Assembly (NCBI GenBank): GCA_963836205.1
Contig: CAWIIV010000011.1
Location: 135,903 to 199,902, forward strand
DNA: 64,000 nucleotides
Direction: 5' to 3'
DNA from: an uncultured Acidimicrobiia bacterium
Lineage (GTDB): Bacteria > Actinomycetota > Acidimicrobiia > Acidimicrobiales > AC-14
The position numbers and the translations under genes were made by a program. How positions within the stretch are numbered: the stretch's first letter is position 1; each line of letters opens with the position of its first letter. Under the pieces are notes generated by a model, which ran no database searches, was not told the DNA's origin, and saw only the letters and a list, made by a program, of their open reading frames with translations. Below, piece by piece: positions 44,371 through 54,857 of this stretch.

Positions 44371-47300
44371 ATGGGTGAGACAGGTCCGGAGCAGGACAAC
44401 CGAGGCCCGCTTTCGATCGCCGGGGCCCTCCTGGCCAGCCTGCTGGCCTTCCTCGGGGGGGCGACGGTCTCGGCCACGGCCGCCGCCGGGCAGGTCACCA
44501 CCACCAGCACGCCCGCCACGACGACGAGCACCGTCGCCGCCCAGACCGGGGCCGGGTCGTCGACCGGGCGGTCGAACAGCGAGGCCAACTCCGGGGCCAG
44601 CTCGGCCGGCTCCGGCGAGTCAGGCGTCAGCGGGACGGCAAACAACGAAACCGAGATCGTCGCCGCCGGCGGCGAGGGCGGGAACGGCGGGGCGGCTGCG
44701 CCGATCGCCGTCGGTGGCGGCGGTCTCCTCGGCACCGGCATTCCCGGCAGCAACGCCGGCGCCGTGGTCGCGGTCGGCAGCGCATCCGGCGGCGACGGCG
44801 GGGCGGCCATCGTGGCCGTCAGCCCGGCTGCGGTCTCGGGCACCACGGGCGACGCCACCGGCCAGTCGTCGGCCACCAACAGCGGCGCCACCGGCAAGGC
44901 CACGTCCGCCGCCACCGCCGATCCCGCCTCCAGCTCCGGCAACACCGGTGGTACCGGCAACACCGGCTCCGCCACCCCCAACCCCTTCTCGGTCAGCACC
45001 GGCCTCCTCAACATCACCCCCGTCGCCACCGACCAGGGTGGAGTCGGCAGCGCCGGCCAGGCATCGGGCGGCAACCCCCTCGGCGGCCTCGGAGTCGCCG
45101 CCGGGTCCGCTCCCGGCCCCAACCCCTCCCTGCTGAGTGCAAGCGCCCTCGGCGGGCCCGCCACCAGCAGCGGCTCCGGCTCCACCGGGGCGTCGGGACA
45201 GGTCGCGTCCATCGGCTTCGCCGGCAGCTCGGCGAACACCGGGGCCCAGTCCGACGTCACTGCCCGCTCGGGGGCCACCGGCGCGGCCGAGAACGACACG
45301 TCGGTGGTAGCGGTGGCGGGCGACGGGGGCGACGGCGGCATCGTCATCCCGATCGCGGTGGGCGGCACCACGTCGAACACGATCGTCGGCGCGCCCGGCG
45401 CCGCCGGCCCTGCGGGCGGGGCCGGTACCGGCGTCGACGGCGGTCCCGGGACTCCGGGTGTCCCTGGCGTCGGCATCGACGGTGCCGTTGGCGCGGACGG
45501 GGCGGTCGGCGCGGGTGGGGCTGCGGGCGTCCCGCCGGCGCCGGGTGGCGCGGGAACCCCCGGCGGCGCGGGTGGTGCCGGCGGCGCGGGTGGCCCGGGG
45601 GCGGGCATCGCGGGCGGTGTCGGCGGCGCCGGTGGTGCCGGAGCAGGCACGGCCGGTGGTGCGGGCGGCGCCGGCGGGTCGGCCAGCGGCAGCCCCACGG
45701 CGGTGGGTGGCACCGCGGTCGCCACCGGATCGGCAGATGGCGGGGACGGCGGGGCGGCCACCGTCACCTTCAACAGCCCGACGGCATTGTCCGGCAACTC
45801 GGGGGCGACGTCGGCCCAGGGAAGCGCCACCAACTCGGGCGACACCGGCGACGCGTCGTCCACCGCCACCGCCAGTCCCACCGCCGTCTCGGGCGACACC
45901 GGGCGCTCGGGCGACACCGGCGACGCCGAGTCCAGCCCCACCGCGGTCAACTCCGGACTGCTCGGGGTGGCGGCTGCCGTCGGCGGCCCGGCCACGACGG
46001 GCGCAACCGGCGACACGGGCAACACCGGTGCCGCCACCGCCCTCGGATCTGCGACCAGCGCTGCCAACAGCGGAGCAGACAGCGTCGTCGACTCGGTGTC
46101 GGGCGACACCGGCGCGGCCACCAACGACGTCACCGCGCTGCTCCTGGCCGGCTCCGGCGGCGATGGCGGCGTCTCGGTGCCGGTCGCCCTCGGCGGCGAC
46201 GCCAGCAACGTCCTGGCCGCAGGCGCCGGCGGCACGGGTGGCGCCGGCGGTCTCGGCACCGGCGGCGCGGGCGGTGCCGGCGGTATCGGTGGCGCCGGAA
46301 CCGGCTGGTGCCGGCGGCGCGGGTGGTGCCGGCGGCGCGGGTGGGGCCGGCGGCGACAGCGCCGGCGTCACGGTCGTCGTGGGCGATCCTGCGCCCGTCA
46401 TCGGTCCCATCGTCACCGGCGGGCCCGGCGGTGCCGGCGGCGCCGGCGGAGCGGGCGGTGTCGGTGACACCGGTACGGGCGGCGCGGGCGGGGCCGGCGG
46501 TGCCGGCGGTACGGCCACCGGCGGCGCGGGCGGTGCCGGCGGTGCCGGCGGTACGGCCACCGGCAGCCCCACGGCCATCGCCGGCGGGGCGGTGTCGGTC
46601 GGCAGCGCCGACGGCGGCAACGGCGGCGAGGCCACGTTCACGGCCAGCCCCGACGCCCGCTCGGGCGCATCGGGCGCGTCCAGCGCGCAGTCTTCGGCCA
46701 CCAACACCGGTGACACCGGGGCCGCGTGGTCCAGCGCCACCTCCAGCCCCACCGCGATCACTGGCGACTCCGGCGACTCCGGAGACTCCGGCGATGCGTC
46801 CACCGACCCGTCCGCCACCAACACCGGTCCGGTCGGGGTGGCGGTCGCCGTCGGCGGCGACGCCACCTCGGGCCTCACCGGCCTCACCGGCGCCACCGGC
46901 GACGCCACCGCGCTCGGCTCGGCCGTCTCCTTCGCCAACTCCGGCGCCTCCGCCGACGGTGGCTCGGCCTCGGGTGCCACCGGCGCGGCCGTCAACGTCC
47001 TCGACGTGCTCGTTGTGGCCGGTGAGGGCGGCGACGGTGGCGCGGCCATCCCCGTGGCCCTGGGCGGCGACGCCACCAACGTGATGCTCGGCGGCGCGGG
47101 CGGTGCCGGCGGCACTGGCGGCGCGGCGACGGGCGGGGCCGGAGGCGCCGGCGGCGCCGGAGGCGCAGGGCAAGGCGGCGACGGCGGTGGCGGCGGGACG
47201 GGCGGCGGCGGCGGTGCCGGCGGTACGGCCACCGAAGTCTCCACCGTTGTCAACACCATCAACGTGGCCGGCGCAGACGCCACCACCGCGGTCACGATCG

Positions 47301-53300: not shown

Positions 53301-54857
53301 GTGGCGAGGGCGGTGCCGCCGTGTCCCTGGCCGCGGGTGGCCCGGCGGTCAATGTGCTGGTCGGAGGAGCCGGTGGTGCAGGCGCAGGTGGAGGCGCCGG
53401 GTTCGGCGGCTTCGGCGGCTCCGGTGGCACCGGCGGTGCCGGCGGCGGCGGCTCCGGTGGCGCAGGTGCTGCGGGCGGAGCGGGTGGTGCCGGCGGCGCC
53501 GCGGCATCGGCCATCGTCGTCGTGGGCGACCCCGCGCCCATCATCGCCCCGATCGTCACGGGTGGCGCCGGCGGCGCCGGCGGTGCGGGCGGTGCCGGCG
53601 GTGCGGGCGGAGCCGGTTTCGGCGGCTTCGGCGGTGCCGGCGGTGCGGCCGGTTCCGGCCTGGGCGGTGCCGGTGGTGCGGGCGGTGCCGGCGGTGCCGC
53701 CGGCGGCAGTCCCGCGGCGGCGAGCGGGGTTGCCCTCGCCACCTCCCAGGCCGATGGCGGCGAGGGCGGTTCGGCCTCTATCACCGGCGATCCACGGGCC
53801 GAGAGCGGCAGCTCGGGAGCGGCGAAGTCGCAGGGCAGCGCCACCAACACGGGTGACACGGGCGACGCCGACTCCCGCGCCACGGCCAGCCCGTCGGCAC
53901 GATCCGGCGACTCCGGCCGGTCCGGCGCGACGGGCGATACCAGTGCCGATGTCAGCGCGGTGCAGGGCGGCGCCCTGGGTGCCGCGGTGGCGGTCGGTGA
54001 CGACGCCCAGTCGGGTGCCACCGGCGAGTCCGGCGACACCGGCGACGCCGATGCCGACGGCGCCGCCGACGGCACCGCTAACTCCGGCGCCAAGGTCACC
54101 GCCGCCGCCCAATCGGGCGATACCGGTGTCGCCGCCAACCTGTCCGTCCCGATCATCGTCGGCGGCGACGGCGGCGAAGGAGGGGCGACCGTGGCTGCGG
54201 CGACGCCGGGTGCGGCCGTCAACGCCATCGTCGCCGGGGCCGGAAGCGCCGGTGGCCTCGGTGGTCAGGGCTTCGGTGGCCTCGGCGGTCCCGGTGGCCT
54301 CGGTGGCCCGGGGGCCGGCGGCGCTGGCGGAGCAGGTGGCCCGGGCGGAGCAGGGGGCGCCGGAGGGGCCGGTGGTGTGCCCGGCGCTCCCGGAGCACCG
54401 GGAGGACCTGGGGCCCCAGGTGCTCCGGGCGGCGGTTCCCCGGGAGCCGATGGTGGCATAGGAGCGGTAGGCGCCGGAACTCCCGGTGCCGATGGGGCCG
54501 AGGGGGCAGCCGGGATCGTCGGACCGAGCACAGCCACTGCGGTCACCGGCAGCGCCTTGGCTCCCACCGAGGCCCGCCCCGGCAACGGCTCAGGCCGTCT
54601 CGATCACGTCCACGCCGGTTGCGGTGAGCGGCAGCAGTGGGGCCTCCACCGCTCAGTCGTCGGCCACCAACACCGGCGACACCGGCGACGCCACCGACAC
54701 GGCGACGTCCAGCCCCACCGCCGCTTCAGGCAACAACGGCGACGGCGGCGAGTCGGGTGAGGCCGACGCCTCCACCCACGCCGAGAACTCCGGCCTCGGG
54801 GGCGCCGCCATCGTCGTGGGCGGCGAGGCCGCCACCGGCCGGCCCGAGGAGGACTGA
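44371..54857 (+). CDS. Giant Gly/Ala/Ser/Thr/Asp-rich repetitive secreted protein (about 3,494 aa if two +1 frameshifts near 46306 and 54574 are corrected)
   Basis: GGAG RBS, ATG and a signal-like N-terminus (LLASLLAFLGGATVSATAAA). The SATN[S/T/D]G motif recurs 12 times at about 820-950 bp spacing across three reading frames, with GGAGGAGG tracts and SGDSGDSG triplets between. Confidence 0.85.

Follow-up and report, generated by a model that had tools for sequence, protein, structure and literature searches.

What is encoded in the 10.5 kb that separate the ribosomal protein genes rplA and rplJ of an uncultured Acidimicrobiia bacterium, and does the gene there still work? The DNA analysed here, referred to as the window, is a stretch of 64,000 nucleotides from a genome (G000) of 4.05 Mb in 25 contigs, with a completeness of 88.6% and a contamination of 1.4%. 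The original prediction, made from the letters alone, placed at 44371-54857 a gene of about 3,490 amino acids (aa) for a giant secreted glycine-rich modular protein. The length was nearly exact (3,494 aa), but the frame is discontinuous, being broken by a T at 46306 and by another at 54590. Our best reading, to which we give a probability of about 0.6, is that this giant gene specifies a Sec-exported, very acidic surface or matrix fibre of ~290 kDa, belonging to a new lineage-specific family; its export, fold, oligomeric state and surface role are what we infer. The coordinates of all features are collected in Table 1.

In DNA of this kind a long open frame means little by itself. The gene region is 77-81% G+C, every frame is open for hundreds of codons and antisense frames extend up to 2,066 codons, as would be expected if there were no gene at all and the frame had arisen by chance in GC-rich repeat DNA or as the shadow of coding on the opposite strand. 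Relatives of the window allow this to be judged. A pattern scan of species-representative genomes gave 40 loci, 38 of them from Acidimicrobiia or Acidimicrobiales metagenome-assembled genomes; a module gene lies directly 3' of rplA in the three closest genomes carrying it (G001, G002 and G003) and was found 3' of rplA at six places. The G001 orthologue is an uninterrupted frame of 3,514 aa from its Met (3,549-codon open frame), collinear with the window protein over the same 12 modules and 79.4% identical to it over 3,474 aligned residues; its signal peptide and C-terminus resemble those of the window protein, and start and stop are conserved. On a Joint Genome Institute (JGI) metagenome contig, L064, an rplA that is 89% identical precedes a frame that stays open for at least 3,020 aa, up to the contig end, with 69.7% identity to the window protein and anchors at matching spacing. 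Intact homologues, on whose existence the original prediction had staked itself, were thus found. The ratio of nonsynonymous to synonymous substitution rates (dN/dS) relative to G001 is 0.42 for the first coding segment and 0.24 for the second (2,749 aligned codons past the first break), the G+C content of third codon positions (GC3) tracks frames 1, 2 and 0 in order along the gene, and the points at which antisense frames break differ between the window and G001. Because orthologues are intact, dN/dS is low and the antisense breaks are not shared, these comparisons lead us to conclude that the lineage maintains a real protein-coding gene. With the G001 frame kept open over 3,549 codons, sense-strand dN/dS below 1, a conserved signal peptide, start and stop, and sorting signals in paralogues (see below), the view that there is no gene is hardly credible, and it is refuted for practical purposes.

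The protein is built of long repeats: Tandem Repeats Finder, with its maximum period of 500, is blind to the 897-nt module period and reports only Gly-codon microrepeats of 9-51 nt. All 12 anchor positions given originally match GCSACCAAY exactly. This pattern occurs 28 times in the window against 2.3 expected, a number reached by none of 100 shuffles, and 23 of the 28 matches lie inside the giant gene. The 12 anchor SATN motifs, beside which the protein has two other SATN matches, are spaced by 275-318 aa and mark 11 full modules and one truncated module averaging ~299 aa (four are exactly 299 aa), in agreement with the predicted dozen modules of about 300 aa. Divergence at the DNA level with the register kept had also been claimed, and rightly: DNA identity between modules is 56-73% and the longest exact stretch common to two of them is 34 nt, while the nine central modules show 56-70% protein identity with 91 invariant columns and few insertions or deletions (indels). 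The conserved register and invariant columns would point to a folded rather than a random chain.

Each module consists of a part A of ~185 aa and a part B of ~115 aa. Part A is rich in S, T, A, G and D, with conserved alternating hydrophobic stretches, and follows the motif string ...SPxAxSGxSGxxxxQxSATNxGDTGxA...SGDSGDSGDxG...ANSGA...SGxTGxAxN...GGxGG...GGxAxNV; about 30 columns are at least 90% conserved across 149 diverse copies, and a part A profile recovers 10 full copies in the window (E values of 5e-59 to 1e-73). In part B, GGX triplets flank a short hydrophobic hairpin, and the Gly tracts make up ~40% of each module. The autocorrelation of Gly at lag 3 is 0.537 in part B (47.9% Gly, triplet runs of 9-11) and 0.258 in part A, no shuffle exceeding 0.07, and uninterrupted Gly-X-Y runs comprise 10-11 triplets in most modules and 18, with 9 Pro, in module 11 (M11). 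On our own reading, Gly-triplet tracts with Pro also appear to be present in M1. Such a strong three-residue periodicity fits the proposal that the tracts are of the polyglycine-II type.

Without the two extra bases, the product has a mass of 290 kDa, a computed isoelectric point of 4.05 and a net charge of about -240. Its composition (G 30.9, A 20.8, S 10.6, T 9.4, V 6.7 and D 5.5%) and its scarcity of other residues (K+R 16, H 4, C 0, W 2 and Y 2, beside 258 D+E) are as originally described. As Cys is missing, there is no lipobox. A signal-like N-terminus had been noted, and no other 19-residue stretch of the protein is as hydrophobic as this segment (Kyte-Doolittle value 1.89); a hydrophobic Sec-type N-terminus is conserved in five orthologues, including those of G001, G002, G003 and L064. 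The protein ends in ...GGEAATGRPEED followed by the stop, and neither an LPXTG or LAXTG motif nor a transmembrane segment was found at its C-terminus. Inspection of the C-terminus and Pfam thus bear out the statement that PE/PPE domains, LPXTG and a C-terminal transmembrane segment are lacking.

Whether the window copy itself is functional depends on how its two frame breaks arose. Compared with G001, each is exactly one extra base: ...GGA ACC GGC [T] GGT GCC... at the first and ...AAC GGC [T] CAG GCC... at the second. The first site is read straight through by both G001 and L064, and the second by G001 (L064 ends earlier). If both T's are real, the window copy would be a pseudogene or a switched-off contingency gene, whose product would be limited to the first 645 codons and an Arg-rich out-of-frame tail, the intact form being found only in relatives. 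Several observations speak for such a loss and against an intact window gene: the first shift lies in a 9-nt repeat tract able to slip; none of 34 ordinary open frames in the window is split, as judged by Pfam coverage, which means that indels are not general in the assembly but concentrated in the giant genes; their density is 2 in 10.5 kb here and 5-6 in ~24 kb at a paralogous locus on contig C15, which carries five internal +1 shifts and one possible -1 shift; and six shifts (four +1 and two -1) interrupt the G002 and G003 orthologues as well. Real decay or a phase-variation-like instability would also fit these data. Other findings favour a technical origin. All seven internal shifts in the two giant genes of G000 are +1 single-base events, a uniform class of lesion that looks technical, and past the first break 2,761 codons run without an in-frame stop or a deletion relative to G001. 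The dN/dS of 0.24 argues in the same direction, though an average over the whole divergence would miss a recent loss. In G002, rplA (contig C2:131691-132420) is split into residues 1-211 and then 198-243 in the +1 frame, probably through an indel that assembly introduced into an essential gene, and the rplJ tail of G001 is frame-shifted; shifts in such genes of related assemblies favour a consensus error in the window copy as well. The breaks are therefore probably assembly consensus errors or a very recent change, with an old pseudogene the less probable origin, and we regard inactivation of the window copy as possible but not as the favoured outcome.

Programmed +1 frameshifting was rejected, as intact orthologues read through and the seven shift sites have no common slippery motif. 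The exact 30-nt left flank of the first break, searched in metagenome contigs, gave no match. A genome-wide frameshift scan by a hidden Markov model of GC3 phase produced 363 candidates; it put the C15 gene on the wrong strand and missed the two known breaks, and was discarded.

To what family does the protein belong? Pfam gave no family on five pieces of the gene (for 44371-46380, no match at E up to 0.01), NCBIfam gave none on the gene pieces, a PDB profile search returned low-complexity noise only (e.g., collagen IX at E 0.013), and the best ESM Atlas match (0.86) belongs to a cluster named 'hypothetical protein'. The modules have no curated match to any well-described family, and no description of such a protein in Acidimicrobiia was found among the papers listed by literature searches (supplementary files lay outside the search). 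The original remark that the family could not be named holds. A search of 1.84 billion representative proteins yielded only 75 matches (E up to 1e-3), all of 45-532 aa. A profile (A2) search of proteins of 348-2,000 aa gave one 432-aa 'hypothetical protein', which is weak evidence with low-complexity crowding probable, and a word-indexed search with part A of M8 among proteins of 1,513-4,816 aa gave no match in 7,998 scored candidates, low-complexity words probably crowding out relatives. At the genome level the distribution is sharp: the part A profile matches five of six other genomes of the same family (E up to 1e-8), where the longest part A open frames are 4,843 and 6,539 aa, but none of 294 genomes in the remaining families of that order and none of 300 genomes sampled across the class (E up to 1e-10). 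By these searches, the part A repeat is a new family confined to one family-level lineage of uncultured Acidimicrobiia.

In G000 itself, part A recurs ~40 times in the ~24-kb locus on contig C15 and in two small genes. The large paralogue (about 234868-258800, minus strand) begins with a signal-peptide-like N-terminus and, past the possible -1 shift, ends in ...ATLARTG, a hydrophobic segment and RIGRRR.... Its neighbours are dnaG on one side and qcrA, ctaE, cox2 and DUF3151 genes on the other, with TldD also nearby; among these housekeeping genes there is no sortase or glycosyltransferase. The small paralogues (C15:322393-323463 and C6:186359-186784, both plus strand) have 1-3 part A modules and no Pfam match; the one on C15, like comparable short genes of L026 and L049, stops directly after a ...TATNTALLG.AIA... 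motif.

Across the loci retrieved, 606 domains were hit by the profile of part A, and 328 of these hits were close to full length. From 87 part A open frames, a loose regular expression picked 18 candidate sorting signals, of which 11 are complete, with LA(R/F)TG, a transmembrane segment and an RRR basic tail; the other seven are chance matches inside repeats at locus edges. The complete signals are in L014, L016, L017, L020, L022, L025, L027, L028, L033, L039 and L050, several of which share genomes and so are not independent. G000 has three sortase genes, and LAXTG is the signal recognised by class E sortases in Actinobacteria from soil and freshwater (PMC5148588). The rplA-linked orthologues in the window, G001 and G003 all end without a sorting signal. 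What sets the rplA-linked type apart is part B; Gly tracts are also found at the end of a few other loci.

The pattern of Gly at every third residue is the one needed by left-handed three-residue helices, that is, by the collagen triple helix or by polyglycine II, and the polyglycine-II sandwich model for PGRS domains likewise needs Gly-rich triplets (PMC9436101). A three-copy model of the M11 region (54230-54556) gave a parallel bundle, in register with a stagger of 0-3 residues, scoring 0.34 where the best of three controls scored 0.00; at least 93% of contacts are common to the runs, and the partner has a predicted local distance difference test (pLDDT) value of at least 64. The mark applied, 0.32, is reached by 21 of 30 solved homomers and by none of 23 solved single chains, the calibration having been done on two copies. 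The model points, narrowly, to a possible collagen-like trimer of the M11 tract.

Not all results favour an ordered surface fibre, and the following count against it. The trimer score lies only narrowly above the mark and may reflect memory of solved collagens. AlphaFold2 gave a mean pLDDT of 31 for two modules with a 17-row alignment, proposing strands on the conserved hydrophobic stretches, and 51.7 for part A with 149 rows, where only residues 1-30 and 150-180 reached 66-78 and no DSSP element was assigned. Foldseek found no match in the PDB. The window copy has no anchor, so that its surface location would rest on analogy with the paralogues. Modelling of the modules, which had been proposed as a check, did not yield a confident fold, and of the predicted exported structural protein it is the export and surface part, through the Sec-type N-terminus and the sortase signals of paralogues, that gained ground. 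These results would be accommodated by an exported but mostly disordered, acidic, Ser/Thr-rich and probably O-glycosylated brush or hydrogel around the cell: AlphaFold2 confidence is low, the better model has no regular secondary structure, nothing matches its fold, and the chain is of low complexity, with 20% S+T, 31% G and its large negative charge. A brush of this type would not readily explain why module length and register are kept (four modules of the same length, 91 invariant columns), why hydrophobic stretches are conserved and modelled as strands, why purifying selection acts, or why three copies of the collagen-like tract come out ordered in the model. Moreover, shallow repeat-only alignments often lead to low pLDDT for orphan folds. 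We consider the disordered brush unlikely.

If the fibre reading is right, then: the signal peptide would be cleaved and the chain exported by Sec; the Gly-triplet tracts would form left-handed three-residue helices, as collagen-like triple helices or polyglycine-II bundles, and part A would fold into compact, beta-rich knots; such a chain, perhaps as a trimer, would make a long fibre of the beads-on-a-rod type, lying on the cell wall or around it; paralogues consisting of part A only would be attached covalently by a class E sortase through LAXTG; and the window copy, having no anchor, would be either released into the matrix or held non-covalently. With a rise of 0.29 nm per residue for a triple helix, the part B tracts would span ~0.35 µm if they were fully extended triple helices. 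A bolder and rather improbable version pictures a mega-fibre in which rods alternate eleven times with a novel beta-rich 185-aa domain and three chains lie in register in a filament of some hundreds of nm; together with the sortase-anchored paralogues, it would be the defining envelope coat of one Acidimicrobiia family, and the window copy, on this view recently placed between the rplKA and rplJL operons, could be expressed in step with growth rate.

How does the protein compare with known fibrous systems? The long GGA/GGX tracts with Gly at each third residue recall the PGRS domains of mycobacteria (PMC9436101), and in both cases GC-rich, polymorphic repeat genes encode very Gly/Ala-rich proteins with a proposed surface location. 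As both occur in Actinomycetota, a relative of the PE_PGRS proteins, forming a polyglycine-II 'sail' at the outer lipid layer, could be envisaged. The giant protein, however, is strongly acidic, appears to have a Sec-type rather than a type VII signal, and alternates its Gly tracts with a conserved domain of 185 aa, rich in S, T and D, which is absent from PGRS. The PE domain (Pfam PF00934) was not found in 44371-46380, the gene pieces lack any other Pfam match, neither Pfam nor the PDB profile search (low-complexity noise only) detected homology to PGRS, and the family is confined to one Acidimicrobiia family. A PE_PGRS relationship is already disfavoured and appears very improbable.

Bacterial collagen-like proteins include streptococcal Scl and the Bacillus BclA exosporium filament. 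The giant protein shares with this class its Gly-X-Y runs with Pro and, probably, a location in secreted surface fibres of Gram-positive-type cells; if the narrowly passing three-copy model is right, it may also share the parallel staggered trimer. It differs in being ten times longer, in its 12 part A interruptions, in having mostly GGA/GGF triplets without Pro or charge pairs, and in lacking a globular C-terminal trimerisation domain of known type. Pfam Collagen (PF01391) matched none of the five gene pieces and only two of 149 part A copies, weakly (E 0.022). Polyglycine-II bundles such as snow-flea antifreeze protein are below 10 kDa, Cys-bridged and not modular. The Gly-X-X periodicity and the very few large side chains are common to both, but the giant protein is large, Cys-free and modular, and nothing points to ice binding.

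Giant sortase-anchored fibrillar surface proteins of Gram-positive bacteria, substrates of class E sortases with LAXTG, resemble the window protein in their signal peptide and many tandem stalk-like repeats (PMC5148588; PMC8286594). Members of its family end in LAXTG, a transmembrane segment and a basic tail, and the genome has sortases, but the window copy lacks a sorting signal and its repeat matches no known stalk domain (Ig-like, SD repeat or others). No adhesive head domain was detected in it; Pfam and NCBIfam gave no SLH or other curated envelope-binding domain on any gene piece; and RTX/beta-roll nonapeptides (GGxGxDxUx) number only 3-5 regular-expression matches in 3,494 aa, with no match to Pfam PF00353. 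The Ca2+ binding through Asp-rich xGD triplets that had originally been suggested gained no support. We infer that the giant protein works in the manner of Gram-positive surface fibres, with the triplet chemistry of PGRS and collagen-like proteins, and that the repeat unit is new.

How did the gene come to lie between rplA and rplJ? Pfam identifies nusG, rplK and rplA upstream and rplJ and rplL downstream of it. In five of five other genomes of the same family, one of the same genus, the rplA-rplJ gap is only ~140-210 nt with nothing between. In the insertion-free genome G385, ...CGTAGTACCCT... comes immediately after the rplA stop, with a conserved leader then extending to the rplJ start, and in the window a leader homologous to that of G385 adjoins the stop of the giant gene. 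The absence from all five relatives indicates, at the level of sequence comparison, that the giant gene is a derived insertion, occupying ~44168-54857 (10.7 kb) with sharp boundaries. The original view of a conserved rplKA-rplJL neighbourhood that tolerates insertions is thereby sharpened. The inserted block comprises a hairpin, a promoter-like site, a GGGGAG ribosome-binding site and the open reading frame, and we propose that the gene would have entered the spacer as such a block, bringing along its hairpin and promoter-like sequence. The hairpin following rplA is kept in four insertion-bearing genomes and missing in G385; a terminator consensus scan, which did not call it, gave no site beside the giant gene. 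The candidate promoter has its hexamers at the position originally stated, with TTGGAA kept in three of four genomes and TAGTCT in three of four (TAACCT in the fourth), but the pair falls below the threshold of a strict sigma-70 consensus scan, which calls no promoter beside the giant gene. The ribosome-binding site proposed earlier is present.

The 166-nt rplJ leader has near-invariant columns in three genomes with the insertion and can still be recognised in other genera. For this leader, RNAalifold predicts a multi-stem consensus structure of 36 pairs, five with compensatory changes, and an Rfam search beside the giant gene (E up to 0.1) found no L10 leader or other element; it may be an undescribed autoregulatory leader of the L10 type. 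The rplJ product downstream is 429 aa long, an L10 domain being followed by an acidic, repetitive tail of ~245 aa, rich in A, P, E, T, S and D and ending in ...TPEETQES. A long L10 tail is present in all three insertion-bearing genomes examined (G000, G001 and G003): it is ~195 aa with the same ending in G003 and out of frame in G001. The rplJ open frames of five other family members are only 229-286 aa.

Soils and waters hold many Acidimicrobiia, most of which have not been cultured, and hardly any work has been done on their envelopes; here a lineage devotes 10-24 kb per gene to proteins that no database names. That only 75 short matches exist in 1.84 billion proteins suggests that such giant proteins systematically escape gene callers and short contigs. 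Single-base breaks pile up in these genes in metagenome assemblies, so annotation pipelines will call them pseudogenes or fragments. If trimeric Gly-triplet fibres are indeed formed, collagen-like or polyglycine-II architecture would extend to a new bacterial group, and the protein would provide a natural fibrous scaffold free of Cys and poor in Lys and Arg. The insertion, precisely bounded by the rplA stop on one side and the rplJ leader on the other, is also a clean case of a core ribosomal locus taking up a large cargo.

Table 1. Positions of the giant gene, its parts and the adjoining ribosomal protein genes in the window
Feature	Position	Strand	Basis or remark
nusG	42248-42991		upstream; Pfam
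rplK	43008-43436		upstream; Pfam
rplA (ribosomal protein L1)	43433-44167	+	Pfam Ribosomal_L1, E 4e-68
Terminator-like hairpin 3' of rplA, then UUUU	44193-44225	+	-22.1 kcal/mol, z -3.0
Promoter-like TTGGAA-17 nt-TAGTCT	44247-44275	+	sequence; conservation in relatives
Ribosome-binding site GGGGAG, 8 nt 5' of ATG	44357-44362	+	sequence
Predicted signal peptide, residues 1 to ~37-39 (Arg11, hydrophobic 13-33, A-T-A/A-A-A site)	44371-44487	+	
Coding segment 1: N-terminal region, M1, most of M2	44371-46305	+	frame 1
Extra T, +1 shift, within 9-nt GGCGCCGGC-type tract	46306	+	one base more than intact G001
Coding segment 2: rest of M2 to start of M12; 2,761 codons	46307-54589	+	frame 2
Collagen-like tract in M11: 18 uninterrupted Gly-X-Y triplets, 9 Pro	54275-54436	+	
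Extra T, +1 shift	54590	+	one base more than intact G001
Coding segment 3: truncated module M12 and TGA stop (54855-54857)	54591-54857	+	frame 0
Twelve tandem modules	44734-54854	+	starts 44734, 45688, 46559, 47459, 48356, 49253, 50174, 51038, 51935, 52832, 53702, 54527
Conserved rplJ leader	54858-55023	+	inserted block ends just 5' of leader
rplJ (L10) with long acidic tail	55024-56313	+	Pfam Ribosomal_L10, residues 16-112
rplL	ends 56701		downstream; Pfam

Elsewhere in the window, two complex I (nuo) sets stand in tandem on the plus strand, the first (2-10060) with nuoG/H/I/L/M/N-like and the second (12560-24026) with nuoA/C/D/H/I/K/L/M/N-like genes, and a DUF222 open frame (10634-12307, minus strand) lies between them. 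A frame of 1,940 aa at 27543-33362 (minus strand) combines a Ser/Thr protein kinase with AAA_16 ATPase, TPR, GAF, PAS, HisKA and HATPase_c domains. At 37760-38710 (minus strand), a GNAT acetyltransferase frame and a STAS-domain frame share the same reading frame with one stop codon between them, and they are probably two genes.

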